From contig JAUWKS010000062.1 in the NCBI GenBank assembly GCA_030614005.1, positions 1 through 18,399 of the forward strand: a stretch of DNA of 18,399 nt. The letters are read 5' to 3'. Position numbers and translations under genes: made by a program. This document shows, piece by piece, positions 1 to 18,399 of the stretch. Every line of letters begins with the position of its first letter. Within the stretch, counting starts at the first letter, position 1. The stretch is from Candidatus Heimdallarchaeota archaeon (GTDB taxonomy: Archaea > Asgardarchaeota > Heimdallarchaeia > JABLTI01). The notes below the pieces were generated by a model. That model ran no database searches. It was not told the origin of the DNA and saw nothing but the letters and a program-made list of their open reading frames with translations.

Positions 1-155
1 CGTATCATTATACCATAGATGTTTGCGAAGGAAAGGTCAGTATTAATTACAGCACCAACAGCTGCTGCTCGAATGAGGCTATTTGCTGTCTCCCAGTCGT
101 TGTAAGGTGTGGGTTCTTTGTCGTATAGTAATGGATCTGTTGACCAGTGGAGCAT
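1..155 (-). CDS. Possible 5' part of a hypothetical protein running off the left edge (MLHWSTDPLLYDKEPTPYNDWETANSLIRAAAVGAVINTDLSFANIYGIMI...)
   Basis: Manual translation: ATG at 155-153, open to position 1, purine-rich AGGTTGGAAAGG just upstream, in-frame TAA five codons upstream. No recognisable motif. Confidence 0.3.
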   Translation of the reverse strand, partial: MLHWSTDPLLYDKEPTPYNDWETANSLIRAAAVGAVINTDLSFANIYGIMI

Positions 156-377
156 ACCTTTCCAACCTATTTATTGACAATATACTTGAGCGTCTAAAAC
201 TAGCTTTGAATTAAAATATAAAAAGACTTGGAGGTCTGTATCAAATTTAACAAGTAATTTGCTATTTTAATTCAATGGATCAAGGTTAATTAAGCTAAAC
301 TAATCTTGTTGTATAACAATAAATCATATTGTTAGATCCTGCTACTAATTTAATGAAACGTTTGATCTTACTTTTGT

Positions 378-1502
378 TTATTGTTTGGATTCGGTAAGTG
401 TAAAATTAATTTTATAGATAAATGTTTGAATGTTCTTAGTCTTTTTTAACGCATAATATAGATTCTCATCATAACTTCCAGCAATAACAATACCCTTTAC
501 TGTTTGACCACCAGTTTTGTGAGATTCAAGCCATCCTATATATCTTAATATCTGACCAACAGTAACATCAGATGTTTTATTTCGTTTAAGTTCGATTACA
601 ACTAGCTGTTTTGTTTTTTTGTCTCGAACTAAAATATCAATAATTCCAACATCTGTTCTGTACTGTTGACTAACTAAGTCTCCATTTTGTTCAATCAATT
701 CATAATTTTTAGCTAAATCTGTTTTATCCCAATTAGCAATTAAAAAATTCTCGAGCTCGTTTTCCATATAGAAACTTGCTTCATCACCATGAATAACATC
801 AACTTTATTCTCATATGTTGTATCTGAAGCATCATCCGAACCTCTCCAATCGTTTTTTAGTTTAGCGTATAAAAATTGAGCTAATATTTGAGGAGTAGTT
901 TCTATCCCTTTTTCTTTAAATCCACTCAAGATGATTTTATTAGTTTGGGTTATTTTCCTGCCTTGAGAATCATTCTCAAAATCGAGGTTATGTGCAAATT
1001 GGTAAAAATCAATAATCTTCTTTCTATCATTTAATGAAACAACTGCAAGATATTTTGTTGGAGAATAAGCAAAAAGCATAGAATTAATAGCATTACCACT
1101 TTTACCTGTAAGACTGTTTTTTCTTCCTTTATTGAACTCATAAAGCTCATCAATAGTAGCAATTTTCTCATCATCATTTTCTGAAATGAAAATCTTGTTT
1201 AATAAAGATTTTAGTTCCTTATTTTGTTGAATTTCTTTGAAAAGTCGCCTCCAAACACCTTGAGGAATCATGACATTTGCTACTGCATGAGTATCTTTTG
1301 TACTTCCTTTTGCTTTTTTATCTAGGATTAACACTATTTCATCAATTTCTGAATCTGATATTGATGGATATGAATCATCCATTATTTTTTTCTGCCAGAA
1401 ACCTATGAACTTCTTACTTTGTTTTAACCAAATATTCCCTAAATCCTCTGTATCGTTACTCTCAATATAAGACTTAAATGTGTTTTGTAGTTCATTACTC
1501 AT
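378..1502 (-). CDS. PD-(D/E)XK endonuclease with a C-terminal NucS/DUF91-like nuclease domain and an uncharacterised N-terminal domain; putative restriction/defence nuclease
   Basis: C-terminal 130 aa: ENELENFL (motif I E), QQYRTDVGIIDILVRD (PD-type D), LVVIELKR (ExK), VGQILRYIGWL (QxxxY), GIVIA. 374-aa uninterrupted ORF. Confidence 0.8.
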   Translation of the reverse strand: MSNELQNTFKSYIESNDTEDLGNIWLKQSKKFIGFWQKKIMDDSYPSISDSEIDEIVLILDKKAKGSTKDTHAVANVMIPQGVWRRLFKEIQQNKELKSLLNKIFISENDDEKIATIDELYEFNKGRKNSLTGKSGNAINSMLFAYSPTKYLAVVSLNDRKKIIDFYQFAHNLDFENDSQGRKITQTNKIILSGFKEKGIETTPQILAQFLYAKLKNDWRGSDDASDTTYENKVDVIHGDEASFYMENELENFLIANWDKTDLAKNYELIEQNGDLVSQQYRTDVGIIDILVRDKKTKQLVVIELKRNKTSDVTVGQILRYIGWLESHKTGGQTVKGIVIAGSYDENLYYALKKTKNIQTFIYKINFTLTESKQ

Positions 1503-1649
1503 TTCGAAATCACCAAGTAATACTAAATACTAAATCTAGAAAGTCAATTTAGTACAATTGCAGATACAAGTATTCCAGAAACTCTTTAATGTTCTCATAA
1601 AGGAATTTTCAATTGACTTCATTAACTAATAATAAAGACCATAAAATTT

Positions 1650-1817
1650 TCACTCTTTCTTTAGAGGACCCAATATTATAGTTTCTCCTTCTACTCTAAT
1701 TTGCATTACATCCCCTTTCTGTAGCTCAAAAGCTTCTACTAATTCAATAGGTATGTTTACCGAAAGTGATCCTTTGTTATCTATTAGTTTTCTTTTGAAA
1801 ATTATCTCTTTTGGCAT
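1650..1817 (-). CDS. AbrB/MazE/SpoVT-family DNA-binding protein, 55 aa (MPKEIIFKRKLIDNKGSLSVNIPIELVEAFELQKGDVMQIRVEGETIILGPLKKE)
   Basis: Not in the ORF track; translated manually from ATG 1817-1815 to TGA 1652-1650. Swapped-hairpin signature KGSLSVNIP...L.KGD.M.I.VEG..IIL.P. Confidence 0.85.
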   Translation of the reverse strand: MPKEIIFKRKLIDNKGSLSVNIPIELVEAFELQKGDVMQIRVEGETIILGPLKKE

Positions 1818-1856
1818 TGAAATTACACTCTAACTGTGTACTATAATTATCCGTGG

Positions 1857-1865
1857 TATTTATAA
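1857..1865. promoter_or_regulatory. Candidate TATA box shared by the divergent abrB-like and RAMP transcription units
   Basis: TATTTATAA reads as TTTATAA on + (about 58 nt before ATG 1923) and TTATAAATA on - (about 40 nt before ATG 1817). Confidence 0.4.
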
Positions 1866-1886
1866 GCAATACTCCATATAATATAT

Positions 1887-1905
1887 TAGGATATTACTAG
1901 GATAT
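1887..1905 (+). repeat. Two direct TAGGATAT octamers 11 bp apart; possible operator
   Basis: TAGGATAT at 1887-1894 and 1898-1905, between the TATA box and the GAGGAAG ribosome-binding site (1909-1915). Confidence 0.35.
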
Positions 1906-1922
1906 AATGAGGAAGATGTTTT

Positions 1923-2714
1923 ATGATTGAACGAAAATTCAAACGGTTAGTAATAAGCGCTTCAACACCAATCGCTAAAACGGGCAATGGACCAGCGGTG
2001 GGAGGAAAGGTGAACAATCTGTTACTGTTAGGAAATGGAACAGAAAATGGCAAGGATGACAGCAAGAGATACCTGATGAAAGGCATCCGAGGATGGATCA
2101 ATCATGCAATGATAGCAGTGGCAAAAGAACAGGGAGTAGAAGTATGTCATACATCAAGCAAAACAGAAACGCAAAGTGGAGTGAACTTACTACCAACAGG
2201 TTTGCACGCAAGAGGAAAGTGTCTGGAAACAGAAGAATGCATACAGCACAAACTGATGGGATCGATAAGTAAACCATCCAAACTAAAATTTGAGCCTGTG
2301 ATAATCATATCAACAGCAAGCAAAGGAAAGATAGAAGACAACAACACACAAAAAATGCACATAGCCACCGAAAGAAGAAACTCACTGGTACACAAAACAA
2401 AAATTGCTATACAAGATTTCGGTGAGAGATACTTCAGTGGAAAGTTCACCATAAAAATAGAGTTCCTAGAAGAACTAACAAAAGAAGAATTAGCATTCCT
2501 TCTGAAAGGAATACTATATGCACCAGAGATCGGTCTTGGAGCAGCAGTGAACAACGGGTCGGGAAAGGTAAACATACATTCAGTGGCACTACAGGAAGTA
2601 ACTCGCTCACGAGGGTTCAACAAGCAAGGAAAAGTAGTCGAAGAGGAAAAAATACGAAACCTCTGGAAAGAGATGGAGGAGGGAATGAAAGCATGGCCGA
2701 AAGCAAACACCTAA
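1923..2714 (+). CDS. Cas7-group RAMP protein (Csm3/Cmr4-like backbone subunit), highly diverged
   Basis: N-terminal strand ending in STPI; YLMKGIRGWINHAM matches the Cas7 sSlKGalR helix; Cys/His cluster VCH...HARGKC...ECIQHKLMGS matches the Csm3 C..C.lFGs Zn-lid position; C-terminal Gly-rich loop IGLGAAVNNGSGKV. Confidence 0.75.
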   Translation: MIERKFKRLVISASTPIAKTGNGPAVGGKVNNLLLLGNGTENGKDDSKRYLMKGIRGWINHAMIAVAKEQGVEVCHTSSKTETQSGVNLLPTGLHARGKCLETEECIQHKLMGSISKPSKLKFEPVIIISTASKGKIEDNNTQKMHIATERRNSLVHKTKIAIQDFGERYFSGKFTIKIEFLEELTKEELAFLLKGILYAPEIGLGAAVNNGSGKVNIHSVALQEVTRSRGFNKQGKVVEEEKIRNLWKEMEEGMKAWPKANT

Positions 2715-3784
2715 GACTAATAGGGAAAATAATCACCCCAATAGTTACCAATAAACCGTTCTTCTATATGAGAGGATGTAAAGTAGCGATAACCAAGCAC
2801 CCAGAGGAAAACGAACGAGGATATTTTCCCTACCCAAGAAGAACACACTATGGAAAATTGATAAAGGGGGACCGTAGGGCACCCACATTACGAAAATGCT
2901 ACAAGGGATTTGTAGTAGTAATGTTCATACCAGACTACCCAGGTGGCCAAGAACAAACAGAAAAGAAGTTAAAGTGGTTTCTAAACCTGGAGGGATTGGG
3001 TGCACACCAAAATGAAGGAATGGGAAAAATACATTGGTTGGAAAGAAAGGAATGTATGCGTAAGAAAAAACTACCCAAGAAACGAAAATTCCACTACTTG
3101 AAAGGATTAGGAAGCTACTCAGAACCAATCCTTATTGCAATCAAAGCACTACTACTGCACGACTTTGTCAAAACAGAGAAGCACATAAGCAAAATATACC
3201 AAGAAGTAGACATCAAAAACGAACTCATAAAAGAAGCATGCAAGAACCATCACAACAAGGAATACAAAGGAAATAACTGGCTGATACCCATAATAAGAAA
3301 ATATGATGGACTAGCAGCATTCATAACCCGCAAAATACCACGAAAAATGACCGCGAGATACGACTACTTCAACGGAGAACTAGACTTTAAAGAACTAGTA
3401 AAAGAAATTGAACTAAACCAATACTCAACCCATGAACTATACAACTATATCTACAACTCAAAAACTCTCCAAAGAATACCAGAAGCAATGAACTATTCAA
3501 ACAATAACTTGAGAAAACATCTGCTATTAGCAGTAAACTTATTTATCAATGATTTTAAAAAGGGACTCATTTTAGTAAAAGATAATGAAATAAGGAAAGT
3601 TTCAATACCGGCAAAAGAAGAAGAAAGCAAAAAATTCTTATCTAAGTCAAAGGTGCTGAAACGCATCTACCCGTCTAAAAAAGCTGATTCTAGAATTAGA
3701 AATAGCGATCAAGTGACTGACTGCTCAGGGGGAAAACCACCCGAAAAAAAGCAGAAGGAATGGAGCTTGAAACGGGATAACTAA
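2693..3784 (+). CDS. Short RAMP (Cas5/Csm4-like) domain fused to an HD nuclease domain
   Basis: N-terminal ~120 aa: LIGKIITPIV first strand and Gly-rich loop LEGLGAHQNEGMGKIHW. Then HD motifs ALLLHDFVK (H156 D157), CKNHHN (H186 H187), IIRKYDGLAA (D205), and late NLRKHLLLAVN (H276). Overlaps the upstream gene by 22 nt with GGAGGAGG upstream of its ATG. Confidence 0.7.
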   Translation: MAESKHLRLIGKIITPIVTNKPFFYMRGCKVAITKHPEENERGYFPYPRRTHYGKLIKGDRRAPTLRKCYKGFVVVMFIPDYPGGQEQTEKKLKWFLNLEGLGAHQNEGMGKIHWLERKECMRKKKLPKKRKFHYLKGLGSYSEPILIAIKALLLHDFVKTEKHISKIYQEVDIKNELIKEACKNHHNKEYKGNNWLIPIIRKYDGLAAFITRKIPRKMTARYDYFNGELDFKELVKEIELNQYSTHELYNYIYNSKTLQRIPEAMNYSNNNLRKHLLLAVNLFINDFKKGLILVKDNEIRKVSIPAKEEESKKFLSKSKVLKRIYPSKKADSRIRNSDQVTDCSGGKPPEKKQKEWSLKRDN

Positions 3785-3843
3785 ATAAATTGACTAGAAA
3801 ATAGACGAAAAAAGAGAAAAAAAATTTAGTGTGTTGTATTCGC

Positions 3844-6063
3844 ATGGTACGTATTAAAAATCCCGACGAGATTCGAACAATGGTCAAATCCCATCCTATG
3901 GATCAGCGTCGTGTCTTCAGTATTGCCGCCCACATTGATCACGGCAAGACCACTACGAGCGATTATTTGCTTCGTCGTGCTGGTCTTATGAGTGATCAAG
4001 ATGCTGGCACTAAGTTGATGACTGACTCTGATGAGGAGGAGCAAGAGCGTGGTATAACTATTTTTACCAGTGTTGTTCTTCTTAGTTACGAGCACCAGGG
4101 CAAGGACTATCTTTTTGAGATCAATGATACTCCTGGTCACATTAGTTTTACTGGTGAGGTTAGTCGTGCTTTACGAGGTAGTGATGGTGCTATTATTTTA
4201 GTTGATGCTTTAGAGGGTTTGATGACTCAGACTATTACTAACATTCAGTTGGCTGTTGGCAGTGAGATGTGCAAGCCTGTTTTGTTCATTAACAAGATTG
4301 ATCGTTTGATCAGTGAGTTGAAGCTTCCTGCTAACAAGGTTTTTGAGAAGGTTGATACTATTATCACTCAAGTTAACGAGCAGATTAAAAAGTTCGCTCC
4401 TCCTGAGTTCAAGAAGAAGTGGCAAGTTTCTTTTGCTAAGAACAGTGTTGCTATTGGCAGTGCTAAGGATGGTTGGGCTTTCACTCTTGAGATTCTCAAG
4501 GATGCTGGTCATACTAATCCTGACATTGTTTTTGAGAAGTATGCTGAGGATGACCGGCAATGGCTCCGTGATAACCTTCATTTAGAGGATGCTTTGCTTC
4601 GTATGGTTATTAATCATTTACCCAATCCTGCTGAAGCTCAAAAGTATAAGATCCCTCATATTTGGAGTGGTGACATTGACTCCCCTGAAGGTCAATCTTT
4701 AATTAACTGTGACCCTGATGGTCCTTTATTAGGTATGATTACTAAAGTTTTCATTGATCCTAAGAGCAAGCGTCCTACTTTGATTGGTCGTGTTTTCAGT
4801 GGCACTATTCGTTCTGGTATGGATATTGAGCTCATTGGTCAGAAGCGCAAGGTTCCTATCAAGCGTTTAGGTGTTATGGAGATCACTGATATCCTTGATT
4901 GTGATGAGATTCCTGCTGGCAATCTTTTTGCTATGTTCGGTTTCATTGCTCCCAGTGGTGAGTCCTTCCGTGAGCCTGGTACTAATTATGCCGGCTTTGA
5001 AGAGATCAGTTATGCTGCTGAACCTGTTGTCAGTCGTGCTATTGAAGCTGTTGACCCTCAAGATTTAGCCAAGCTTGGTGATGTTGTTAGTAAATGGATT
5101 ATGGCTGATCCTACTGCTACTTTCCGTCATGACAAGGAGAGCAACAAGTATGTTCTCTCTGGTATTGATCCTCTTCAGATTGAGATTTTGACTAAGCGTA
5201 TTAACGAGCAGATCAAGATCAACATCAATGAGCCTATTATTGTTTATCGTGAGCGCATTAACCAGACTGGTAGTGTTGTTCATTCCAAGTCCCCCAACGG
5301 TCACAACCGTTTGAAGCTCTACATTGAGCCTTTAGATGATAAAGCTGTTGCTCTTATCAAGAGTGGTGCTATCAATATGGATCAAGCCGATAAAGTTCGT
5401 GCTGGTGTTCTTCGTGATAAAGCCGGTTGGGATGCTAAATTTGCTCGTAAGATTTGGGCTATGGAAGGTCAGAATATGATCATTGATGCCAGTTCTGGTG
5501 TCCAGCGTATGGATCGTATTAAGCAATATGTCATTCAAATTTTCAAGGACTTTACTTACTCTGCTACTGTTGCTAAAGAGCCTACTCTTGGTCTCAAGGT
5601 TGTTATTACAGATGCTACTATTCACACTGACCCCGCTCATACTGGTTTCTCTGAAATCCTTGGTATGACCACTGCTGCGATGAACATTTCCTTCCTCACT
5701 GCTAATCCCCATATCTATGAGCCTATACTCTCTGTTGATATTAAAACCCCCAAAGAGTATATGGGTGCCGTTATGGGTCTTATCAGTCAACACCGAGGTC
5801 GCGTTGAGAACACTGTCGACGAAGGTGAGCAAATCCGTGTTGTCGGTGTTTTGCCCACTGCTGAAACTTTAGGTGATTTTGCTGACAAGATTCGCAGTGC
5901 TACTTCTGGTCGCAGTTTCTGGGGTTATCAGTTCAAAGCTTTTGAGCAAATACCTTCCAATATGGAAGTTGATATTATCATTGAAATCCGCACTCGTAAA
6001 GGTTTGAGTCCTGAAGTACCTGTTCCTGATAATTGGTCCCGATTTGTTTACAAACGGCAATAG
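3844..6063 (+). CDS. fusA: Archaeal elongation factor 2 family GTPase, probably a divergent EF-2 paralog
   Basis: G1 AHIDHGKTT, G2 ERGITI, G3 DTPGH, G4 NKID, GSA; domain IV KSPNGHNRL; C-terminal IRTRKGL. ATG 3844 (MVRIK) preferred over the GTG at 3829. Diphthamide loop reads HTDPAHTGFSE. Confidence 0.93.
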   Translation: MVRIKNPDEIRTMVKSHPMDQRRVFSIAAHIDHGKTTTSDYLLRRAGLMSDQDAGTKLMTDSDEEEQERGITIFTSVVLLSYEHQGKDYLFEINDTPGHISFTGEVSRALRGSDGAIILVDALEGLMTQTITNIQLAVGSEMCKPVLFINKIDRLISELKLPANKVFEKVDTIITQVNEQIKKFAPPEFKKKWQVSFAKNSVAIGSAKDGWAFTLEILKDAGHTNPDIVFEKYAEDDRQWLRDNLHLEDALLRMVINHLPNPAEAQKYKIPHIWSGDIDSPEGQSLINCDPDGPLLGMITKVFIDPKSKRPTLIGRVFSGTIRSGMDIELIGQKRKVPIKRLGVMEITDILDCDEIPAGNLFAMFGFIAPSGESFREPGTNYAGFEEISYAAEPVVSRAIEAVDPQDLAKLGDVVSKWIMADPTATFRHDKESNKYVLSGIDPLQIEILTKRINEQIKININEPIIVYRERINQTGSVVHSKSPNGHNRLKLYIEPLDDKAVALIKSGAINMDQADKVRAGVLRDKAGWDAKFARKIWAMEGQNMIIDASSGVQRMDRIKQYVIQIFKDFTYSATVAKEPTLGLKVVITDATIHTDPAHTGFSEILGMTTAAMNISFLTANPHIYEPILSVDIKTPKEYMGAVMGLISQHRGRVENTVDEGEQIRVVGVLPTAETLGDFADKIRSATSGRSFWGYQFKAFEQIPSNMEVDIIIEIRTRKGLSPEVPVPDNWSRFVYKRQ

Positions 6064-6120
6064 GCTTTTGGTTTTTTTCGAGAGATTTTTCTCTCTCATT
6101 TCCTCTTTCTTTTTTGTTTT
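5941..6120 (+). repeat. Left copy of a ~180-bp direct repeat (EF-2 last 40 codons, stop and terminator)
   Basis: Aligns without gaps to 13801-13980 (offset 7,860). Manual count: 94/123 nt identical over the coding part; perfect 44-bp core at 6047-6090 = 13907-13950. Confidence 0.95.
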
Positions 6121-6124
6121 TCTT
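6066..6124. terminator. T-rich terminator region with a short GAGAG/CTCTC hairpin between convergent EF-2 and ABC ATPase genes
   Basis: TTTTGGTTTTTTTCGAGAGATTTTTCTCTCTC followed by long pyrimidine runs immediately after the EF-2 TAG. Confidence 0.6.
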
Positions 6125-7783
6125 TTATTTTTCTTTTCGTTTCTTTGTTACAACTAGCCCATCTTTGACTATTTTTCCATCTACTAATTCTATTGCTCGA
6201 GTTTTTTCTCTTATCATTGTTATATTATGTGTTGCAATGATTGTTGTTTGAGCTGTCTCTTTATTCATTTTGTATATTTGATCTGCTGTTTGTTCTACCA
6301 ATTCCGAATCAAGATTTGCTGTTGGTTCATCCAGTACCAATATTTTTGGTGTCCCATTGTTTGCCATTGCCAACATTGCTCTTTGTAGCTCTCCTCCTGA
6401 TATTTCCATCGGGTAGTTATTTTGTTTGTGTGCTATTTGAAACGTTTCTAGCAATGTTTTCTTTTCGTTTTTGGTTGTCTCTTTTTTCTCTTTCTTCTTG
6501 GAGTATATTTCTTTCAAATAGAGATTTTCTCTCACAGTTAGATATGGGTGCATATTTCCTTGTTGTGATACTATTCCAAACTCTTCTCTTCTTACTGCTG
6601 CTCTTTCCACATCTGTTTTTTCGCTAAAATTCTCTCCCAGGATGGTTATCTTTCCTTCTGTGCATGGCTCCATACCTGTTATTACTTTTAGGAGGGTTGT
6701 TTTCCCTGAACCACTTGGTCCGAGAATAAAGAGCAATTCTCCTTCATTGATTTCTAGTTCTATCCCTGCTAATGCTTTTACTTCCCCTTTCTTATACAGG
6801 TATGTTTTTGCTACATTCTCTAATTTAATTGCTTTTTTCGCGTTTTTGTAATAGTCTTTTGGCAGTGGTTCTAGTAGCAATTGTTTTCTCTGCTCTTTGT
6901 ATTCCGGTAATTTCACTTTTTTTGGCGGCTTTTTCTCTGGATGGCCAAGAGTTATCGAGCCTTTTTTCGTTACCTTAAATTCCAAGTTTCTTTCTAGTTG
7001 TAAGGTTTCAAATACTAGATCTGGCAGTCTAGTATGTTTTGTTTGATCAATATAGCTTTTCAGATATATCGGGAATGAGCTTCTTTGTTTTCTTTCTTCT
7101 TCGCTCAGCACGGTTGATATCCGTCCATCCCGTATTTCATAGGTCTTATCTACTCCTTCTAAGAATCTGGAGTCATGAGTTACTACAATTACTGTTGTAT
7201 CGTACACTTCTGCTATTTGTTTCAGTAATTGTTTTACATTCTTGGTGTTCTCACTGTCTAGCTGTCCTGTTGGTTCATCACACAATAATAAGGGTGTTTT
7301 CTTTGCTAACGCACAAGCAATTGCAACTCGAGTCATCTCTCCTCCTGATAATGGTTTCACCAATCTATTTTCTAAATGACTGATACCTAAATCAGTCATT
7401 ATTTTCATTCTTTTCTTTCCTGTTGTTGGTGTATCCCCATATCTGAGGGTATAGGCAAATTGTAGATTATCTTTCACTGTTGCATCTAAGAATAAAGTTC
7501 GTTCTGGAAATTGGTCCACAAAGCCTATTATTTTCAGTCTGTAATTGCTCAAATTCTCAGGAGTGATTTTTTCCAAGCGGTACCCTGCTACGATTGCTTC
7601 TCCACTTGATATTGTTTCAATTCCACCCAAGATATTTATCAGTGTTGTTTTTCCTGAGCCGCTTGGTCCTACAATTGAAATCAACTCACCCTCCTCTACC
7701 ACTAATTCGCACCCTCGTAAAGCAGGTATTTTTGTTCCGAGGGAACTTTCGTATATTTTTATCAAGTCAATGCATTCTATCAT
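6125..7783 (-). CDS. ABC transporter ATP-binding protein with two fused LolD/MacB-type ATPase domains and an AbrB-like linker (552 aa)
   Basis: Two Walker A GPSGSGKTT motifs, signatures LSGGE and ISGGE, Walker B LLCDEPT and LVLDEPT, H-loops VVTH and IATH. Start set at ATG 7783 (MIECIDL), preceded by AGGAG overlapping the upstream gene's stop. Confidence 0.9.
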   Translation of the reverse strand: MIECIDLIKIYESSLGTKIPALRGCELVVEEGELISIVGPSGSGKTTLINILGGIETISSGEAIVAGYRLEKITPENLSNYRLKIIGFVDQFPERTLFLDATVKDNLQFAYTLRYGDTPTTGKKRMKIMTDLGISHLENRLVKPLSGGEMTRVAIACALAKKTPLLLCDEPTGQLDSENTKNVKQLLKQIAEVYDTTVIVVTHDSRFLEGVDKTYEIRDGRISTVLSEEERKQRSSFPIYLKSYIDQTKHTRLPDLVFETLQLERNLEFKVTKKGSITLGHPEKKPPKKVKLPEYKEQRKQLLLEPLPKDYYKNAKKAIKLENVAKTYLYKKGEVKALAGIELEINEGELLFILGPSGSGKTTLLKVITGMEPCTEGKITILGENFSEKTDVERAAVRREEFGIVSQQGNMHPYLTVRENLYLKEIYSKKKEKKETTKNEKKTLLETFQIAHKQNNYPMEISGGELQRAMLAMANNGTPKILVLDEPTANLDSELVEQTADQIYKMNKETAQTTIIATHNITMIREKTRAIELVDGKIVKDGLVVTKKRKEK

Positions 7784-7788
7784 TTTTC

Positions 7789-10698
7789 TTACTCCTGTTT
7801 TATTGGTCTGTATTGGTTTATTGGTCGTATTAGTGCTATACTCCAAATTCCATTTATCGCTAGAAATTCCATTAGCGTTATTATAACTAGTAACCACCAA
7901 GGTACGCAAAGAGCGAATTGATTATACACAAACAATTTCACTACTAGGTACTTGTCTACTAATTGTAGTACAGTAGTTGCCAATCCAATTGAGATACTGA
8001 TAGGTATAATAGTTATCAACAGAATTTCTATAGTGAATCCCCACCAGATTTGTTTTCTATTTGCTCCTAATCTATACTGAGTTTCGACTATTTTCATTCT
8101 TTGTTGAAAGATTATCTTTGAGGTAAACAAACTATAGAATACCAGCACAAAAACTGTCAGCGCAGTTGTTATTTGCAATAAAAGCAGAATAAAATTATTG
8201 TAAGTATCTAACGCTGGTCTGGTATTCTCTTCATCTAGAGTAAACTGTAATTGATAGGTTTCTTTGAGATCTTCTTTGATTGGTTGTATTTCCTCTTCGG
8301 CTGAGATTTTCATCAAAAGAAAACTACTTTTTGTTACTGTGATGTCTTTTGCAGTATATGCTAATTCTTTTGCAGTGTTATAGTTTGTTACTAGACTATA
8401 GGTTACTAATCGATTATTTGACAAAATATCTTTATCTTGCAATGGCAGTAATGGAAAGTATTCAAAATAGCTGACATATGTTAAAGCGAATTGGTAATAG
8501 GTGGAACTTAGTTGTGAGTTATAGAGCGTAGTGTTCTTATCATAATTATTCTTTTTTGCATAGTTTTCACTCATCAGATAGCTATTATCGGTTTCTAACG
8601 CACTAATATGTTCCAGAGAATAGCTTACTTGTCCTAATTTTGTGTAATCTATTGCTTGGCAAAACTGCTCTGGATTGTGTATTCCCAAGATATGAATGGT
8701 ATAATCAGTAATGTAAGTTGTTTCTACAACACCTAATGTGTAGCTGAATTTATAGAGCGTAACTTCTGTTGCTACTTCAATGTTTTCCCGTAAACTGAGC
8801 TCTGTCAATATCGTCTCATTTGTAGTCCAATCCATTACTACTAAATCAGAACAACCATTTGCTAGATTTGATTCCAAAATGTGGTGATCTTCATATGATT
8901 TGCTAATTACTGCTCCAGGTATAATACATAATAGTGAAACTAGAAGAACAAAAATGAACCTTTTATAATCCCTATAATTTGCTGAGAAATTTTTCAATGA
9001 GAGTGTTACCAAGTTTTTCTTCCAGAGCCAAACCTTGTCGCCCAGAAAAGCAATCCCTCTCGTAATTATTCTTGAGATGAAGTAAAAAATCGAACAACTT
9101 AGAAGAATAATTCCAACGAATAGCAAGGAAACAAAGATCATTAGGTTTGATAGGTAAAATGAATAGGTATCTACTAAAATGAACCCCATGAATTGCAGGA
9201 GGAAGATTCCTAGAATACCTAGGGATGTGGTCAGTATTCCCGGGAACAAAACCTTACATTCTGGATAGGCTAAAAGCTTTGATGCTATCTTCTGGTGTAA
9301 TTTTACTGGTTCACTCACAGGAATGAATGCTGTTTTTTTCATCAGCGCTTTTTCGGTTAAATACCCACCTAAGAATAAAAAGAGGGTGAATGAACAAACC
9401 GAAAACCAATAGAGTGGTAGCACTAATCCTCCAATAAAACTGGATGGTTCCACTTGATACTTTTGTACTGATGTGAGGATAATTCCCATGATTATTCCTA
9501 TGAAGAAACCAGTTACAAAGCTTGCACCAGTTGTTATTATTCCTTCAAATATGAGTACTTTTTTCATTGTTTTATTTTTTATCCCATATTTTTTCAGAAT
9601 TGCAAATGTTGTTTGTAGTTTTTGGGCATCTATATTGAATGATTCCAGTGCGGTAAAGAATATCAATGATAAAATTGGTAGACTGATAGCTATTATTCGA
9701 ATCGTTTCTCGTGTCCAGTAATTGTTAAATGAAAATAGTTTTTTTAGAAGAGCGCTCCCCCAAGTAAAAGCACCATATCTGATAGTTGTTATCCCATACT
9801 CATAGACAAAATCACCAGCTACTTTGTTAATTTTCCATTCCAGTTGACTTTGGTATTTGAACATATTTCGATAATTCATTACAGACCAATCATAGCTAAA
9901 ATCCACTACTATAGCAAAACCAAGACTGGTATATGGATGTTGCTTCACTGCTTCAACAAAGAGATTAGCAGTTGTGAAGAATTGATGTGTAACACTTACT
10001 GGTAGATATTTCTTCCAGTTTAGCACATCAATTGATTTATTGTAGAGAATGAATTCGTTTGTTAGGTTTTCAATGATTCCAACAACAGTATAATTTTGAG
10101 AGTATCTTCTACTATATTTGTTTACAGATAATGAAAAATTATCGCCAATAGTAGGATTTGTCTCTGAAACTCCTTCTCTGAAATAGAGGAGTTCACTTTC
10201 ATTATTTGGCATTCTACCTTCCTGTAAACAATTATTCAGTAATTCATTGGTATTATCATCTAGAAAATTTAATCCATAAGCTGGTGCTCCTTCTGCAGGA
10301 TAAAGTCTTAATGCTATTAATCCAGTCGTGCTAGTAATCGTGTTTTCTGGGAGAATAGTATAGTACTGATATTTATATTTAGATATAATTATTTCAAGGA
10401 TGTTTCTTGTTAGATTTAATTGCTCAACAGCTAGGTGGCTGGAGTAATGTTCTTCTGAAATACTATATTCTTGATCATTCAACCAGTTAGTATTTTCTTT
10501 TGAAAAATTTTGGTATAGATCTATTCTATAACTATTCCATACTAAAATTATTGAAGTAAATATAGCAAAGAAAACCATTCCTGTGAGAATATAAAGTAAA
10601 ATTCTTCTCTTCCCTACTTTCAGAAACATTTTGGTTATTGTTTTCATAGATATTGGATGTGTGTGTCTGAGTGATTTTCTTTCGTAATTTGATTTCAT
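7789..10698 (-). CDS. FtsX/MacB-like ABC exporter permease (duplicated architecture, 969 aa)
   Basis: N-terminal TM, large extracytoplasmic domain (LQEGRMPNNESE, YTVVGII), three TMs, then a repeat of that layout; coupling-helix-like ILKKYGI and YRLGA; in an operon with the ABC ATPase. Confidence 0.8.
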   Translation of the reverse strand: MKSNYERKSLRHTHPISMKTITKMFLKVGKRRILLYILTGMVFFAIFTSIILVWNSYRIDLYQNFSKENTNWLNDQEYSISEEHYSSHLAVEQLNLTRNILEIIISKYKYQYYTILPENTITSTTGLIALRLYPAEGAPAYGLNFLDDNTNELLNNCLQEGRMPNNESELLYFREGVSETNPTIGDNFSLSVNKYSRRYSQNYTVVGIIENLTNEFILYNKSIDVLNWKKYLPVSVTHQFFTTANLFVEAVKQHPYTSLGFAIVVDFSYDWSVMNYRNMFKYQSQLEWKINKVAGDFVYEYGITTIRYGAFTWGSALLKKLFSFNNYWTRETIRIIAISLPILSLIFFTALESFNIDAQKLQTTFAILKKYGIKNKTMKKVLIFEGIITTGASFVTGFFIGIIMGIILTSVQKYQVEPSSFIGGLVLPLYWFSVCSFTLFLFLGGYLTEKALMKKTAFIPVSEPVKLHQKIASKLLAYPECKVLFPGILTTSLGILGIFLLQFMGFILVDTYSFYLSNLMIFVSLLFVGIILLSCSIFYFISRIITRGIAFLGDKVWLWKKNLVTLSLKNFSANYRDYKRFIFVLLVSLLCIIPGAVISKSYEDHHILESNLANGCSDLVVMDWTTNETILTELSLRENIEVATEVTLYKFSYTLGVVETTYITDYTIHILGIHNPEQFCQAIDYTKLGQVSYSLEHISALETDNSYLMSENYAKKNNYDKNTTLYNSQLSSTYYQFALTYVSYFEYFPLLPLQDKDILSNNRLVTYSLVTNYNTAKELAYTAKDITVTKSSFLLMKISAEEEIQPIKEDLKETYQLQFTLDEENTRPALDTYNNFILLLLQITTALTVFVLVFYSLFTSKIIFQQRMKIVETQYRLGANRKQIWWGFTIEILLITIIPISISIGLATTVLQLVDKYLVVKLFVYNQFALCVPWWLLVIITLMEFLAINGIWSIALIRPINQYRPIKQE

Positions 10699-10714
10699 TT
10701 TGTATCCCCCATTA

Positions 10715-13612
10715 TTACTCCACTTTTATTGGTCTATAGTTTTTCACTTGTGGTATCAGACTTGCTGCATTTCCCCCTACTATCAAACATTCGCTTAGAA
10801 GTGTAATCAATATCAATAACCACCAAGGTAACCAGAGATTAAATGAATGATATATTTGCTGAATAGGTATCAATTGCTTGAGAAGCAATAAGAATAGACA
10901 GCTAGCCATTGTGGATATCAGAACAGGACCAGCTGTGATCAAAATTATCTCTAGTACCATTCCTTGCCAAATTTGATTTCTATCTATTCCCAATCTATAT
11001 TCTGTTTCGATTATTCTTTTTCGCCGGTTGTAAATAGTTACTGCAGTAATATACCCGTAGAAGAAGATTATACTAGCAACAATAACAGAGCAAATTATTG
11101 AAAAAATACTTGTGAAAGAATTAGTAGTTTGATCAAGTTCTTTTTCTACAGATTCTGTCGTAATTATTGATGACCAATTATAGATGTTAGTTATTTCACT
11201 TGTGATTGAAGTGAGATTTCCTTCAGCTGTTGTCCTAAGTAGCAAGTAGTCTCTTTCAGAGTAAGTGGCACTTGTTGTAACACTCTCGAGTAGTTGAACT
11301 GTTTGCAAAGATGTTACCAATTGAAATGAAATTGATTGTTGGAATGGTGTTGAGGCATCTGCCACCAAGGGTAGTAGTGGGAAATAATCAAATGATTTAA
11401 CGTATTCTAGTGGATATCTTTCAATCGTTTCTCCGAAAAAGGAGTTATATAAAATTCTATCTGGATCATCATAACCATAGTTCTTCACATGTTCCTTGTT
11501 CATCAAATAAGTTAAATTTCTTGATAATTTTTCAATATCTTCTTCGGAGTATTGTATCTTCCCTAATCTAGACAAATCAACCACTTGATTAAAATGCTTA
11601 CAATTATGTATCGCTAGAATTAAAATCGTATATATCACGTTATGCCCAAAGTCAAAACTGGCTTCAAAATTGATAGTTACAATGGTTACTGTAGTTGTTT
11701 GTTGAACACCAACTATTTGCTCTATTTCTCTTTGTGGTAAAGTATAGTTATCCCAATTTTCTATTAGCAAATCGGCACATCCAACACTCATATCTCTTTC
11801 AAGAGCTATTTGCCTATTCATCGAAGGAGGAAGTATTGCACCTGGCAATAAACCTATACTTGCGATTAATGTAATGACAATTACTCTTTGATAATTTTCT
11901 TTATTTGTTATAAGATTCTTCAATGCATAACTTAGTCTATTTTTATTTTCATACCATCTTCTTTCTCCGATTTTATTGAATTGAGCAAGGATGCATCTTG
12001 CTACTATATAGAACAAACCATTTATTGTGACCAATGCACCTACGATAATGAATACCCATGCAATTAAGGTTATCAAACTTGACAAATCATAAGAAATTGA
12101 AGTTGCAGTTAGTCGTTCAAGCGGGACTATTGTTGCCAATAAAACTCCAGGCAGAAGCATAGTGATTCCGGTTGCTAATAAAACTAGTTCATGTGGAGTC
12201 AACCATACTCTTTTTTTCTTTGAGAATGCTTTTGTTTCTGGTTTCGATTTCATTACTGAGGTTTTCCTCACTATTCGATTTTCTGCGATTATCATTCCTA
12301 TGAACAAAACAAACGTTATCAGTGCCAATATTAGAAGATAGAATGGTTCGAGAAGATACTCAAGAATCGTTTGAATGGTTACTCTAAGGCCTATTATTTT
12401 AGTTAATGCTAATCCCACGAAAGTTCCAACAATAATACCAACAATTAAACTTAGAAGTACTACAAATACACCTTTTATAAGAAGGAGGTTTTTTATTGTT
12501 CTATTTGATAGTCCTTGTAGTTTCATTTTAAAGGTTATATTTTCAAACTCTGTTTGCCCACTTTTGTTTATTTCAATACTGACAAAGAAGAGTAAGAGGA
12601 GTGCAGGTGTCAATAGAAGAATGCTCTTTATTGTTTCGTATATCCAGAAGTAATTAAAACCTTGGAGTGTAGAGAATATATCTTTACACAAAGTGATACT
12701 CTCACTTTGCTCAGAGGAGAAATGAACATCTGTTTGTAATAGATCCTGATGTTGAGATAAATACATCGATATTCTTTGAACATTTATTGCCGAATAGTCA
12801 TACATAAAATCGACAATCATTGCTCTACCGGCATTTATCACTGGGAACGAATTGATTGTTGAGAAGAAATCTTCATTGTTAGTATAAAATATTTCATTAG
12901 CAGAAAAGATATATCGATACTCGTTAAGATTTTCTTGCCAATTCACACAATTCGATGAATAGCCTGATGATTCTAAATGTGGTACAAGAGGACCTAGTAT
13001 TCCTACTATTGTAAAATTCTTTGCAAAGGTATTTGGCACCCTTAATGTTCGGATGGAAATTTCATCATTTAGGTTATAGGTTGAGATATTTTGTTTTTGA
13101 AAATAAAGTATTTCTGCATTATTTGCTGGCAATCGTCCAGTAACTAAACTCTGGTTTAGTATTGGTAGAAGTTCAGCAGTTGTAGTTCTAAACTCAGTAT
13201 GGTGAAAATCGGTTTGTGTAACTAGATTTGAGTAAAATTCTATTGACATCATTCCTATTATCTTCTCTGAAATGACGTTTGGATATAACTCATTCATGGT
13301 TTCTTGTATTTCTAATGTTAAATCTTCTAAATAGTTCTGATCATATGAAGGGACATAACCGTCTTTAACTGTACTATAAAAAGCACTAATTTGATGCTCT
13401 TCATTCTCTTCTACGAAATCCAAAAAGCTTACAGTTTTCGTGGAATTCCAAGTAGTTAAAAATGATGTCAAAAGAAAAATACAGAATAAAGTAATAACTA
13501 CTGAAAGAAGAAACCTTCTCAAATCATTTTTTATTAGAATCGTAAGTTGATTTTTGATACGATGCAAGGGTTTCTTTTTATTATCACTACTACCATTTGA
13601 ACTATTTATCAT
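10715..13612 (-). CDS. FtsX/MacB-like ABC exporter permease (965 aa), paralog of 7789-10698
   Basis: Same layout (LVTGRLPANNAE, FTIVGIL, MKLQGL, YRLGI); C-termini YRPIKVE vs YRPIKQE; shared GCxDL and FxYFPLLP motifs. Confidence 0.8.
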   Translation of the reverse strand: MINSSNGSSDNKKKPLHRIKNQLTILIKNDLRRFLLSVVITLFCIFLLTSFLTTWNSTKTVSFLDFVEENEEHQISAFYSTVKDGYVPSYDQNYLEDLTLEIQETMNELYPNVISEKIIGMMSIEFYSNLVTQTDFHHTEFRTTTAELLPILNQSLVTGRLPANNAEILYFQKQNISTYNLNDEISIRTLRVPNTFAKNFTIVGILGPLVPHLESSGYSSNCVNWQENLNEYRYIFSANEIFYTNNEDFFSTINSFPVINAGRAMIVDFMYDYSAINVQRISMYLSQHQDLLQTDVHFSSEQSESITLCKDIFSTLQGFNYFWIYETIKSILLLTPALLLLFFVSIEINKSGQTEFENITFKMKLQGLSNRTIKNLLLIKGVFVVLLSLIVGIIVGTFVGLALTKIIGLRVTIQTILEYLLEPFYLLILALITFVLFIGMIIAENRIVRKTSVMKSKPETKAFSKKKRVWLTPHELVLLATGITMLLPGVLLATIVPLERLTATSISYDLSSLITLIAWVFIIVGALVTINGLFYIVARCILAQFNKIGERRWYENKNRLSYALKNLITNKENYQRVIVITLIASIGLLPGAILPPSMNRQIALERDMSVGCADLLIENWDNYTLPQREIEQIVGVQQTTTVTIVTINFEASFDFGHNVIYTILILAIHNCKHFNQVVDLSRLGKIQYSEEDIEKLSRNLTYLMNKEHVKNYGYDDPDRILYNSFFGETIERYPLEYVKSFDYFPLLPLVADASTPFQQSISFQLVTSLQTVQLLESVTTSATYSERDYLLLRTTAEGNLTSITSEITNIYNWSSIITTESVEKELDQTTNSFTSIFSIICSVIVASIIFFYGYITAVTIYNRRKRIIETEYRLGIDRNQIWQGMVLEIILITAGPVLISTMASCLFLLLLKQLIPIQQIYHSFNLWLPWWLLILITLLSECLIVGGNAASLIPQVKNYRPIKVE

Positions 13613-13800
13613 ATGTCCACTTCCCTTCTAAAACCCACTTGTATAAACTGTACCTACTGTAAAATAGGTTCTTATACTATTCAATAATTCAATGTAAAAC
13701 TATTTGTCTTCAAGTGTTCATATCATGTTTTCATAAATTAATTAAAATCTAGTTATTTGAAGAAATTTTCTTGCTTATCCACTATTTGAGTATTATTTGT

Positions 13801-13923
13801 TTTGCTCCTTTACCATCAAGCTTAGAAGTCGATGCTATCATTGAAATTCGCAAGCGAAAAGGTTTGACTGCCGAAGTTCCCGTTCCCGAGAATTGGGCTC
13901 GTTTTATTTACAAACGGCAATAG
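13801..13923 (+). pseudogene. Orphan 3' fragment of an EF-2 gene (40 codons plus TAG)
   Basis: Translates to FAPLPSSLEVDAIIEIRKRKGLTAEVPVPENWARFIYKRQ*, 28/40 aa identical to the EF-2 C-terminus. Homology stops at about 13801 and an in-frame TAG lies at 13750-13752. Confidence 0.9.
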
Positions 13924-13980
13924 GCTTTTGGTTTTTTTCGAGAGATTTTTTTCTCTCCTTTTCTCTTTCTTTTTTTTTTC
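13801..13980 (+). repeat. Right copy of the ~180-bp EF-2 3'-end direct repeat
   Basis: See 5941-6120; includes the identical TTTACAAACGGCAATAGGCTTTTGGTTTTTTTCGAGAGATTTTT core. Confidence 0.95.
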
Positions 13981-14107
13981 TTTCGTCTAAATTTAGCTAA
14001 ATGGTCTTTTATTCTGAGCGAAAAAAGCTTAAAATTGCTTTAATCTTACAATTGTTTTTATAGTCTATTTAACATATTTTCGTATAGAATTTGTGGAGAT
14101 ACAAATT

Positions 14108-14341
14108 ATGTCAAAAGAAAAATCAACTTTTCCTCTCGCAACCATTGAGAGGCTTATGAAAGAACATCTACCAAACAACAAAATTGGTAAGAGCGCGAAA
14201 ATAGAGTTTGGTAATTCACTTGCTGAAGTAGCCAAACTTGCTTGTGAAAAAACTCTTGTCTATACCAATGATGCTAAGAGAAAAACAGTCAAGGCTGAAG
14301 ATGTTCAATCAGCTTTCGAATCAATTGGCGATACAGGCTAA
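14108..14341 (+). CDS. Archaeal histone / histone-fold protein (77 aa)
   Basis: FPLATIERLMK (alpha1) and AKRKTVKAEDV (L2-alpha3) histone-fold signatures. ATG 14108 has GGAG at 14095-14098. Confidence 0.9.
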   Translation: MSKEKSTFPLATIERLMKEHLPNNKIGKSAKIEFGNSLAEVAKLACEKTLVYTNDAKRKTVKAEDVQSAFESIGDTG

Positions 14342-14426
14342 TTACTTGTCTAGAACTCATCTAATGCAGGGTGAAAAATAACACAGGTCTTTGTCTAACG
14401 ACAATAGTTAAATAATCAAATAATTG

Positions 14427-14462
14427 GGGAGAAAAATTTTCTCTCTTTCTTTTTTATTTTTA
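14427..14462 (+). terminator. GAGA/TCTC hairpin followed by a T-tract downstream of the histone gene
   Basis: GGGAGAAAAATTTTCTCTCTTTCTTTTTTATTTTT, similar to the EF-2 terminator. Confidence 0.5.
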
Positions 14463-14791
14463 GTCAAATGGTCGTTCCTCATATTTTATCTTTTCAACCT
14501 AAATTGTGCTTTTCTTCTTTCCAAAAAAAATTGCCTCTAAAATATCTCTTATAAGGAGTAAAGAGCAATGATAGCTACGAATTTGAGGGTAAGAAACGCT
14601 TGTTATATTTTCTTCAACTCTTATAACAAAATTATAACCTCTACCCAAAAAAACGTTTATTGGGACGGTGGACTGGATTCCCACTGTCCGTGAATTTTTC
14701 TTGTGTTAGCATATGCTGATCAAAACGTTACAGAATATAGCAATTGAAAAAAGAAAGAAAAAAGGCAAAAAAAAGTTCGTTAATTGATTTA

Positions 14792-14950
14792 TTAGATAGA
14801 TTCGAAATCGCCTTTGCCGGCGCCACACACAGGGCAGACCCAATCATCGGGGACATCTTCCCATTTTGTTCCGGGAGCAACACCTGATTCTGGATCGCCT
14901 TCATCTTCGTCATAAATGTAGGCACAAATTGTGCACTCGTATTTTGCCAT
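14792..14950 (-). CDS. rub: Rubredoxin, 52 aa ([52 protein letters not shown])
   Basis: Manual translation, absent from the ORF track. Two CxxC motifs (CTIC, CPVC) and the canonical YD..GDP..G..PGT.WED.PDDW core. Confidence 0.97.
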
Positions 14951-15141
14951 TGGTTTTTTTCTCCAATATTCTTTTGCAAGTAATTGTTATTTTCTTTCGT
15001 ATTAAACAATTCTTACATTTTGTTCACTTGCACCCAATATAAAAATATGCTCTCTTCATTTCTGAGACACGTTATCAATAAAAAATTAGAAATACAAGAG
15101 CGAAATATTGCTCGCATCTTGCAGTTGATTGTTTAGTTGGT

Positions 15142-15687
15142 TCATTCTATCCAGATTTTTTCGGTAAATGCTTGTGCGGTTTGATAGTACTCCTTTGCAT
15201 TTCGTCGCACTTTAATTGCAAAATGTCGCACAGAATTGGAATTTTTATCCACGAAACGAAGTGTGATAATAGTTTTCTTCAAACAACTTAGAACTATAAT
15301 CAGCACACCAAATATAAGAATAATAATACCAAGTCCCAATGGCGCACCATCTCCATCATTATTAAATAAATCAGCTGCAAAAACAATTATTCCAAAAATA
15401 CCTGGTAAGGATATTAGTGAACCAATTATAATGCCCAGTAGATTAAAAGCTCGAAAACTTACTGATGAACCTCTAAAATCCTCTTTCATAATGTCTAAGT
15501 GAAGATCTCCGGCATTAATCGTTCTTTGTACTTCTATAGCTATTTTCTCTTCATCAACGTTTATGTCTACATTTTTCATTCGTTGTAAGTGTGCGAAACG
15601 CAATAGGAAATTCATACCCATATTTGTTCTTTCATGTGGTGAAAAAATCGATGATCTATTTACTATTGTATATTTAGTGTCTTTCAT
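15142..15687 (-). CDS. Uncharacterised membrane protein with two TM helices (181 aa); paralog of 15725-16270
   Basis: Two hydrophobic segments flanked by soluble beta-rich regions; about 71% identical to its neighbour (128/181 by manual count). Confidence 0.8.
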   Translation of the reverse strand: MKDTKYTIVNRSSIFSPHERTNMGMNFLLRFAHLQRMKNVDINVDEEKIAIEVQRTINAGDLHLDIMKEDFRGSSVSFRAFNLLGIIIGSLISLPGIFGIIVFAADLFNNDGDGAPLGLGIIILIFGVLIIVLSCLKKTIITLRFVDKNSNSVRHFAIKVRRNAKEYYQTAQAFTEKIWIE

Positions 15688-15724
15688 TATTTTACATCCG
15701 TGTTTTTTTTTCTTTTGCTAAAAC

Positions 15725-16270: not shown

Positions 16271-16466
16271 TTCTTTACGCCTTAGTTTTTGTAAATTCAA
16301 TTTTGAACCATTAATAATAAAAGTTTGTTCAAGACTTTAATCACCTTAATATTCTGCCATACTATTTAAGCTTCTTGGAAAGGTCATTCATTACATTTTA
16401 ACAAAAGATACTCAATAACTAATTTCTTTTACTCTAGGAGAGGTTTTTTGTCGTTTCATTTAGTCC

Positions 16467-16474
16467 TTTATAAA
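16467..16474 (+). promoter_or_regulatory. Candidate TATA box for the glycosyltransferase gene
   Basis: TTTATAAA about 56 nt upstream of the GTG start at 16531. Confidence 0.35.
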
Positions 16475-18398: not shown

Positions 18399-18399
18399 A

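Follow-up and report, generated by a model that had tools for sequence, protein, structure and literature searches.

The ARAMP and HRAMP systems are the least understood derivatives of CRISPR; neither has an array, so both their guide and their role are in question. HRAMP, the haloarchaeal RAMP system, was reportedly described by Makarova et al. (2019, FEMS Microbiol Lett 366:fnz079), and the original description of ARAMP is said to be that of Makarova, Wolf, Shmakov, Liu, Li and Koonin (2020, CRISPR J 3:156). The ARAMP passages of two papers from the group that defined the class present it as an array-less, CRISPR-like system that is confined to Asgard archaea, derives from type III and has Cas5 and Cas7 proteins of far-diverged sequence (PMC8730458, PMC12669027). 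It is usually found with HNH or PD-(D/E)xK nucleases and its mechanism is given as unknown (PMC12669027), and most loci contain a distinct form of Cas1 (PMC8730458). The locus examined here lies in 18,399 nucleotides (nt) of DNA from Candidatus Heimdallarchaeota archaeon (assembly GCA_030614005.1, contig JAUWKS010000062.1, positions 1 to 18,399), a stretch that is called the window below. It contains two overlapping genes, P0001, which encodes a Cas7-like RAMP, and P0002, which is predicted to encode a Cas5-like RAMP fused to an HD domain (RAMP-HD). A structured RNA with compensatory base changes lies at the 3′ end of P0002, and an elongation factor 2 (EF-2) family gene follows (Table 1).

As far as the two papers describe ARAMP, the locus resembles it in occurring in Asgard archaea, in its diverged Cas7 and Cas5 proteins, in the lack of an array and in an adjacent PD-(D/E)xK nuclease gene. 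In addition to that gene, PDDEXK_1 genes stand at other copies of the pair, and a LAGLIDADG-like gene is present too. No Cas1-like gene is visible in the window, where only 1.9 kb of sequence precedes the pair. From these two secondary descriptions we infer that the gene pair is a member of ARAMP, a class already published, which agrees with the suggestion in a sequence-only reading of this DNA that the pair might be related to a described Asgard variant. The features of the locus to be set against the published summaries are the Cas5-HD fusion, the AbrB gene, the LAGLIDADG-like neighbour, the RNA, the presence of several copies and the placement beside core genes. An RNA is not mentioned in the ARAMP passages of either paper, and both the RNA and the placement of the cassette upstream of core genes are possibly unreported features.

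HRAMP is similar in being array-less, with diverged Cas5 and Cas7, associated nucleases and a presumed role in non-programmable defence. Compared by description only, it differs in occurring in another lineage and in having larger operons with HNH and other nucleases. The type III-A Csm core (Csm3, Csm4 and the HD domain of Csm1) is distinguished by its Palm/GGDD cyclase, Csm2, Csm5, Cas6 and array, none of which is present here, and the Cas5-like part of P0002, unlike Csm4, is a single RRM of ~125 amino acids (aa). P0001 may also differ from Csm3, in which a catalytic Asp in the N-terminal loop region serves target-RNA cleavage, as no conserved acidic residue is seen in that region of P0001; in the family alignment, which was used without residue-level superposition, no Asp or Glu is invariant or nearly invariant at residues 15–50. 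Type IV-C is likewise a reduced derivative of type III with Cas7, Cas5 and a Cas10-type HD domain that has no cyclase palm (PMC8730458, PMC13676074), but it has a separate large subunit and arrays, whereas P0002 combines the HD domain with the Cas5-like RAMP in one protein and the locus has no array. Type VII (Cas7, Cas5 and Cas14; PDB 8yhd, 8yhe, 8z4j) uses the beta-CASP nuclease Cas14 and array-derived CRISPR RNAs (crRNAs), and neither is found in the window.

The RAMP and RAMP-HD genes

The open reading frames (ORFs) of P0001 and P0002 overlap by 22 nt. A Shine-Dalgarno-like run, GGAGGAGGG, sits 9–17 nt 5′ of the P0002 ATG at 2693. The gene call of the window uses a later start, which gives a protein of 338 aa. 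Because residues 1–25 are kept in homologues, with L9, G11 and P16 nearly invariant, the start at 2693 is the likelier one. In a large protein collection 62 relatives of P0001 and 32 of P0002 were found. Nearly all relatives with a named source come from metagenome-assembled genomes of Heimdall-, Thor-, Hod- and Borrarchaeota; the exceptions are one cluster labelled Zixibacteria and one locus labelled as a Bathyarchaeia bin.

Multiple alignment of 30 P0001 homologues showed that G206, G212 and G214 of the Gly-rich loop are invariant and G204 nearly so. K53-G54-x-x-G57, C75, H76, H95 and C100 are also invariant. Among 21 P0002 homologues the loop glycines G103, G109 and G111 are invariant, as are H156-D157, H164, H186-H187 and H276, and D205 is nearly invariant. 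These residues hold down to 33–35% identity in both families. The sequence-only reading had pointed to two overlapping genes with RAMP Gly-rich loops, to KGxxG and Cys/His motifs in the first protein and to a full set of HD metal ligands in the second, and the alignments bear out each of these motifs. Neither protein has a family match at curated threshold. Judged by their sequence conservation, both ORFs are real, conserved genes of Heimdall-type Asgard archaea.

Several searches place P0001 in the RAMP superfamily. The Pfam RAMPs model falls just below its cut-off (E 7.8e-4, 20.4 bits versus 22.1), the PADLOC Csm3 model matches at 2.2e-5 together with Cmr1 models, and a profile of the P0001 family finds type VII Cas7 in PDB at 2.5e-5. 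The AlphaFold model of P0001 (pLDDT 82, pTM 0.81) gave 149 Foldseek matches at E <= 1e-3. The best was type VII Cas7 (8yhe_J, E 6.2e-9), followed by type IV Csf2 and type III Csm3. On the strength of this model and the profiles P0001 belongs to the Cas7 group of the RAMP superfamily, as had been proposed from its motifs.

P0002 has no sequence match in Pfam, NCBIfam, PADLOC or the PDB sequences, and its assignment comes from structure prediction. Its AlphaFold model (pLDDT 76) has two domains and a disordered tail, with residues 303–363 below 50. Foldseek with the whole two-domain model found nothing at E <= 1e-3, with only RAMPs in the top rows, and a domain-wise structural view was obtained from VIA-align. 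In a shape search of the ESM Atlas the nearest clusters were Csm4_C, Csf3, Csx10 and Cmr3. The N-terminal domain is modelled as probably Cas5-like, Cas5 being preferred to Cas6. Residues 143–305 have an HD-superfamily fold with intact metal ligands, the HD dyad near its N-terminal end and a closing His towards its C-terminal end, an assignment based on a moderate structural Z and the invariant motif order HD...HH...D...H. Sequence comparisons gave no significant link of this domain to Cas10 or Pfam HD: the family profile had no match in PDB, Pfam HD matched 3/21 family members (all at E >= 0.06), hhalign against the Cas10 N-terminus of a congener returned a 13-column motif match with a probability of 1.7%, and BLASTP gave an E of 1.1.

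No Palm/GGDD domain of Cas10 was found in P0002; in its 363 aa only the disordered tail follows the HD domain, and there is no Cas10 family match. Structural matches of P0002 to Csm1 stop at chain residue ~230. As it has no palm domain, P0002 is not a Cas10. We accept P0002 as a mini Cas5-like RAMP joined to a Cas10-type HD domain, a predicted nuclease; the model, the Atlas shape search and the invariant HD ligands all support the RAMP-HD fusion that had been put forward from sequence.

P0001 was then modelled together with residues 1–135 of P0002. The pair reached an ipSAE of 0.70 versus 0.00 for the best control, a value attained by 58/80 solved complexes and 2/110 mismatched pairs. Contact agreement between runs was at least 66% and partner pLDDT at least 76. 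Since Cas5-Cas7 complexes have already been solved, the score may partly show likeness to them and not binding.

A structured RNA at the end of the RAMP-HD gene

The final 150 nt of the P0002 ORF encode the disordered part of the model, and their DNA conservation is far above the protein-based expectation. RNAalifold was applied to eight EF-2-adjacent orthologues and returned 28 base pairs, 15 of which show compensatory double changes. The structure begins with an invariant hairpin, GGUGC-UGAAAC-GCAUC; next comes a three-way domain that a helix of 7 bp closes. The element overlaps the last ~49 codons of P0002. In a pairing test 95.5% of cells were paired, versus 36–50% when the partners were slid by 1–3 columns, and the slid controls had 2–5 double changes versus 15 in the RNA. 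The covariation score was attained by 0/500 shuffles, and the single-sequence fold has a z of −3.6. The RNA was detected only by aligning orthologous loci. None of the 4227 covariance models of Rfam matched the window at gathering score or positions 1400–4000 at E <= 1, and blastn of the intergenic segments of the window against the genome gave nothing above chance.

The hairpin motif G[AG]TGCTGA[AG]AN-GCA[TC]C stands at the 3′ end of the RAMP-HD gene in 7/7 cassettes of the host genome and in essentially all loci of a 27-member Heimdall-type clade. A covariance model finds weaker matches in other subfamilies at the identical relative place. A second subtype of the RNA has a variable 3′ hairpin that is followed immediately by a Shine-Dalgarno-like GGTGA or GGAGA motif, and at one locus (L005) the downstream gene begins directly past the RNA end. 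Four loci of a distant Borrarchaeum clade (L049, L052, L053 and L054) have a RAMP-HD of ~270 aa without the tail or the hairpin motif, followed by a GIY-YIG nuclease gene.

ORFs of P0002 orthologues terminate in differing frames, and at some loci (the C122 copy of the host genome and L005) the RNA lies wholly 3′ of the RAMP-HD stop. For these two reasons the overlap of ORF and RNA is not a conserved coding feature. Across the RNA there is one stop in the P0002 frame and there are 3 and 8 in the other frames, a difference that leaves base composition alone unsupported as the cause of the open tail.

At two further sites in the host genome, C94:2240-2384 and C9:140320-140465, both on the minus strand, the RNA occurs but no intact cassette accompanies it. 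At the C94 site part of the RAMP-HD C-terminus survives as a remnant, and the RNA lies directly upstream of genes for the ribosomal proteins S19e and then L31e, which were named from their sequences.

Because the RNA covaries strongly, is unannotated and travels with the genes, it may be the missing RNA partner of the module, for which it is a concrete candidate. A guide from elsewhere or a non-CRISPR RNA had both been suggested earlier. Of the two the former is now less likely and the latter is favoured, since a covarying RNA stands at the 3′ end of the second gene in every Heimdall-type copy examined. A search for targets of the RNA in the whole genome (blastn-short) gave only A-rich matches of at most 17 nt, which is near chance.

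Copies, neighbouring genes and arrays

The host genome (3.62 Mb, 90% complete) contains seven RAMP/RAMP-HD pairs, each with a companion RNA, and both ORFs are intact in 7/7. Among 151 sampled genomes of the phylum 14 have RAMP-HD matches, several of them with 6–12. The order of divergent AbrB gene, RAMP and RAMP-HD was found in every locus fetched. The small AbrB gene was called in L001–L006 and L028–L030 and was found in own copies C67, C9a and C9b; it is identified beside 4/7 own copies (C83, C67, C9a and C9b). It is transcribed divergently from the RAMP operon and is a probable regulator.

Downstream neighbours are varied. In the host genome they are EF-2, Rpb7/Spt4, Topo VI-B, PfkB, Glu/Gln-tRNA synthetase and a DUF6320 membrane protein; in other assemblies they are EF-2, Rpb7, Snf7 (ESCRT-III), DUF6320, an M20 peptidase and an E2-like protein. 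The downstream gene is co-oriented with the pair in 6/7 own copies, the seventh (C9c) facing a convergent gene, and elsewhere in all loci where it was identified. EF-2 follows the pair in at least six other assemblies. Between the first base of the RAMP gene and the last of EF-2, the window is collinear with its nearest orthologue, L028, with 87.6% of the DNA identical; the genes that lie between LAGLIDADG and RAMP differ.

A maximum-likelihood tree was made from 36 RAMP-HD proteins. EF-2-adjacent copies form one clade (99/95) and Rpb7-adjacent copies another (100/98), so that the EF-2 and Rpb7 positions predate the divergence of the assemblies. Three young copies of the host genome form one clade (100/100), each before a different gene. 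They share a sharply bounded unit of 2.46–2.49 kb that runs from ~100 nt past the AbrB stop to the RNA 3′ end. A conserved stretch of ~90 nt just past the AbrB stop (L024 9310–9420, L025 9201–9300 and L027 9800–9910, on contig C9) marks the other end of the 2.5-kb unit. It folds (one copy has a z of −2.8) with an inner hairpin that appears to covary. In the window the motif of this stretch is absent, and positions 1503–1649 fold no better than shuffles (z −0.5 and −0.1).

Table 1. Features of the cassette and its neighbours in the window
Feature	Positions	Strand	Basis or size
LAGLIDADG-like gene, 5′ end (~51 codons of ~530 aa), cut by contig end	1–155	-	tblastn
PD-(D/E)xK nuclease gene, NucS_C-like C-terminal domain	378–1502	-	Pfam NucS_C 3.5e-13
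AbrB/MazE-fold (SpoVT-AbrB) gene, 55 aa	1650–1817	-	Pfam MazE_antitoxin 1.6e-5, above cut-off
Divergent intergenic region, presumed shared promoter/operator	1818–1922	.	position alone
Cas7-like RAMP gene P0001	1923–2714	+	263 aa
RAMP-HD gene P0002	2693–3784	+	363 aa
P0002 N-terminal single-RRM RAMP domain, predicted Cas5-like	2693–3076	+	residues 1–128
P0002 HD domain, predicted Cas10-type	3119–3607	+	residues 143–305
Structured RNA element, ~130–155 nt	3636–3791 (helices 3651–3776)	+	RNAalifold, covariation
EF-2 family GTPase gene, conserved co-oriented downstream neighbour	3844–6063	+	Pfam GTP_EFTU 1.3e-42, EFG_III, EFG_IV, EFG_C

Upstream, the RAMP pair adjoins the LAGLIDADG-like and PD-(D/E)xK nuclease genes. 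The truncated LAGLIDADG-like gene at the contig end was recognised by tblastn, with 76% identity to residues 5–54 of the C122 copy of its family. This family has two LAGLIDADG motifs with a conserved Asp, and its profile matches the PI-PfuI endonuclease (1dq3, E 2.9e-4). Its gene adjoins most cassettes, usually beside AbrB. The slot between the two, which holds the PD-(D/E)xK gene in the window, holds other genes in orthologous loci. The PD-(D/E)xK protein matches the PADLOC candidate defence family PDC-S02 (7.7e-44) and has no paralogue in the genome.

Beyond the LAGLIDADG-like gene there is often a PDDEXK_1 gene together with a protein of ~650–700 aa (L022 2226–4322, L023 13312–15330, L003 2840–4831 and L005 4079–6013). 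This protein family has Cys clusters and an invariant E460...H521...E537, the spacing of which is like that of the Cas1 triad, and it has no match in Pfam Cas1, PDB profiles or the Atlas. The family is a candidate for the distinct Cas1 form described for ARAMP.

EF-2 family genes number two in the host genome, one in the window and one at C9:79266-81257, and they are 31% identical. Canonical EF-2 has a diphthamide His-Arg-Gly motif, at the place of which the cassette-adjacent EF-2 reads ...HTDPAHTG... The 3′ end of this gene takes part in a 180-nt direct repeat (5940–6119 and 13800–13979, 82% identical); the second repeat encodes a 41-aa copy of the EF-2 C-terminus that is 68% identical. The repeats bracket a block at 6125–13612 that encodes a double ABC ATPase and two FtsX-type permeases of ~970 aa. 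From its sequence, this block looks like an insertion at the EF-2 3′ end with a target duplication. Farther downstream, on the minus strand, two tandem paralogues of 181 and 191 aa (15142–15687 and 15725–16300) have weak Pfam matches and are overlapped by a 300-nt direct repeat of 80% identity.

The window contains no CRISPR array and no tRNA, and Pfam and NCBIfam scans of its large ORFs found no cas1, cas2, cas6 or Cas10 palm. Apart from that of a tRNA, these absences had been noted in the sequence-only reading, together with an absence of cas4. The latter needs qualifying, as the PD-(D/E)xK gene has weak Cas4-like matches (NCBIfam cas4 E 0.022, PADLOC Cas4_II 5e-4). In the 90% complete host genome there is no Pfam Cas1, no RAMP beyond the cassettes and, by k-mer scan, no array, a search that had been proposed earlier. 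With no array in the window or the genome and RAMP folds recovered, the description of the pair as array-less and CRISPR-derived is upheld. A fragment of a complete type I or III locus was also considered and was rejected; 0 of ~40 homologous loci lie inside one.

Arrays are likewise missing near 44 of ~45 related loci (596 kb). The one exception is GCA_050009915.1 (L001, which is the same as L063), where two arrays lie 2.8–5.4 kb upstream of the orthologous EF-2-adjacent cassette. They have a 37-nt repeat in 5 + 7 units with spacers of ~39 nt (L001 4546–4885 and 6742–7240). The two arrays flank a three-gene operon of uncharacterised proteins (132, 197 and 210 aa) and are bordered on one side by the Cas1-like/PDDEXK block and on the other by the LAGLIDADG-AbrB-RAMP block. 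The same repeat is found in 4/10 other searched genomes of the genus. In one congener a canonical type III locus (Csx7, Cas10 and Cas6) is flanked by this repeat and has no cassette genes in its vicinity. The host genome does not have the repeat. We read the arrays of GCA_050009915.1 as co-location in a variable region and not as dependence.

Proposed mechanism and alternative explanations

Folds, family conservation, covariation of the RNA, copy number and conserved position are observed at this locus, and from them the further steps of a mechanism were inferred. We propose, with a probability of about 0.6, that an AbrB-controlled operon gives rise to a Cas7-like/Cas5-HD complex that binds the structured RNA from the 3′ end of the same operon and works by means of its HD site. 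The conserved unit consists of the divergent AbrB-fold regulator, the Cas7-like RAMP, the translationally coupled Cas5-like-HD gene and the structured RNA. The minimal two-protein module envisaged in the sequence-only reading was thus drawn too small, as the unit also has the divergent AbrB gene and the cis-encoded structured RNA. The operon would be transcribed from the AbrB-controlled divergent promoter, and the two RAMP proteins would bind each other as in their joint model. Cas5 and Cas6 proteins bind repeat-derived handles. By analogy, the complex may form on the cis-encoded RNA with its Cas5-like domain on the invariant GRUGC-UGARAN-GCAUY hairpin, and the resulting ribonucleoprotein, whose conserved ligands suggest an intact HD site, would act as a nuclease. 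We are highly confident of the identity of the module parts as assigned; assembly of the protein complex with the structured RNA is more tentative, its chances being somewhat short of even. By analogy with the proposals for ARAMP and HRAMP, the most probable biological role of the module would be defence or conflict.

Some observations weigh against this proposal. The RNA is tightly folded and kept between genomes, unlike a spacer-type guide extended on a Cas7 filament. In distant relatives from Borr- and Thorarchaeota the hairpin motif is missing, and a GIY-YIG gene stands downstream instead. Finally, because the ORF stays open through the RNA, the conservation ascribed to the RNA could be partly protein-coding.

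Processing or control of the downstream core gene by the module is a serious alternative, albeit an unlikely one. Here the cassette would be fused at the transcript level to the core gene behind it (EF-2 in the window), the RNA would be part of the 5′ leader of that gene, and the RAMP-HD complex would bind or cut the leader and so set or switch expression, perhaps as a means of stopping growth during stress or infection. The nearly uniform co-orientation of the downstream gene (6/7 own copies and all those identified elsewhere) suggests such an arrangement, as do the neighbours, which are mostly core genes (EF-2, Rpb7/Spt4, Snf7, Topo VI-B, Glu/Gln-tRNA synthetase, PfkB and the E2-like protein). 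The Shine-Dalgarno-like motif right after the subtype-2 hairpin, the L005 gene that starts at the RNA end, the orphan RNA kept with its RAMP-HD remnant directly upstream of S19e, and the position-specific EF-2- and Rpb7-adjacent clades across assemblies argue in the same direction. The same RNA, however, stands before unrelated genes and is therefore not a gene-specific leader. Moreover, the ~68 nt between the RNA and the EF-2 start include a conserved A/T-rich stretch and could accommodate a promoter of EF-2's own, and own copy C9c lies opposite a convergent gene.

It is very unlikely that the two proteins form a minimal interference complex supplied with crRNAs by a canonical type III system and Cas6 encoded elsewhere. 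This explanation draws on the two arrays near the cassette of GCA_050009915.1 and on the presence of their repeat at the Csx7-Cas10-Cas6 locus of a congener and in other genomes of the genus. It has to contend with a host genome that keeps seven intact cassettes without the repeat, an array, Pfam Cas1 or other RAMPs, with an array near only 1 of ~45 loci, and with the conserved RNA that the cassettes have of their own. An even smaller chance is given to a selfish or mobile cassette, in which a 2.5-kb unit spreads by duplicative insertion before genes and uses RAMP-HD and RNA for targeting or addiction and not for host defence; the LAGLIDADG-like endonuclease, or the Cas1-like and PD-(D/E)xK genes nearby, might be partners in its spread. 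Seven copies in this genome and up to ~12 matches in others would fit such a cassette, as would the sharp boundaries of the three young copies before three different genes and the double-motif LAGLIDADG protein that adjoins most copies, with variable cargo between it and AbrB. Older copies, however, hold their position across assemblies at 56–85% protein identity, so movement is rare; no transposase or integrase lies within the 2.5-kb unit, and the Cas1-likeness of the ~680-aa neighbour is unproven. Scarcely any credence is given to a decaying, functionless remnant of a former type III locus. The lack of an array, Cas6, Cas10 palm and small subunit would be expected of one, but the ORFs are intact in 7/7 copies, residues are invariant over 21–30 homologues, the RNA covaries and several Asgard lineages share this architecture. 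The conservation data contradict a remnant.

A bolder version of the proposed complex, which we regard as quite unlikely, is a self-contained ribonucleoprotein in which Cas7-like subunits and a single Cas5-HD join a structured non-CRISPR RNA of their own, encoded at the end of the operon. Placed as a 2.5-kb unit directly before core growth genes (EF-2, Rpb7/Spt4, ESCRT-III, Topo VI-B, a tRNA synthetase and ribosomal protein S19e), it would process or gate their mRNAs. If this were true, a CRISPR-derived effector would have been repurposed for control of host genes or growth arrest, or a selfish element would target the upstream side of genes. For the ARAMP class more generally, the cassette offers a compact test object: in 2.2 kb it brings together a regulator gene, one RNA and the genes of two proteins. 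The fusion of Cas5 and HD gives an idea of the extent to which type III effectors can shrink and yet keep a predicted nuclease.

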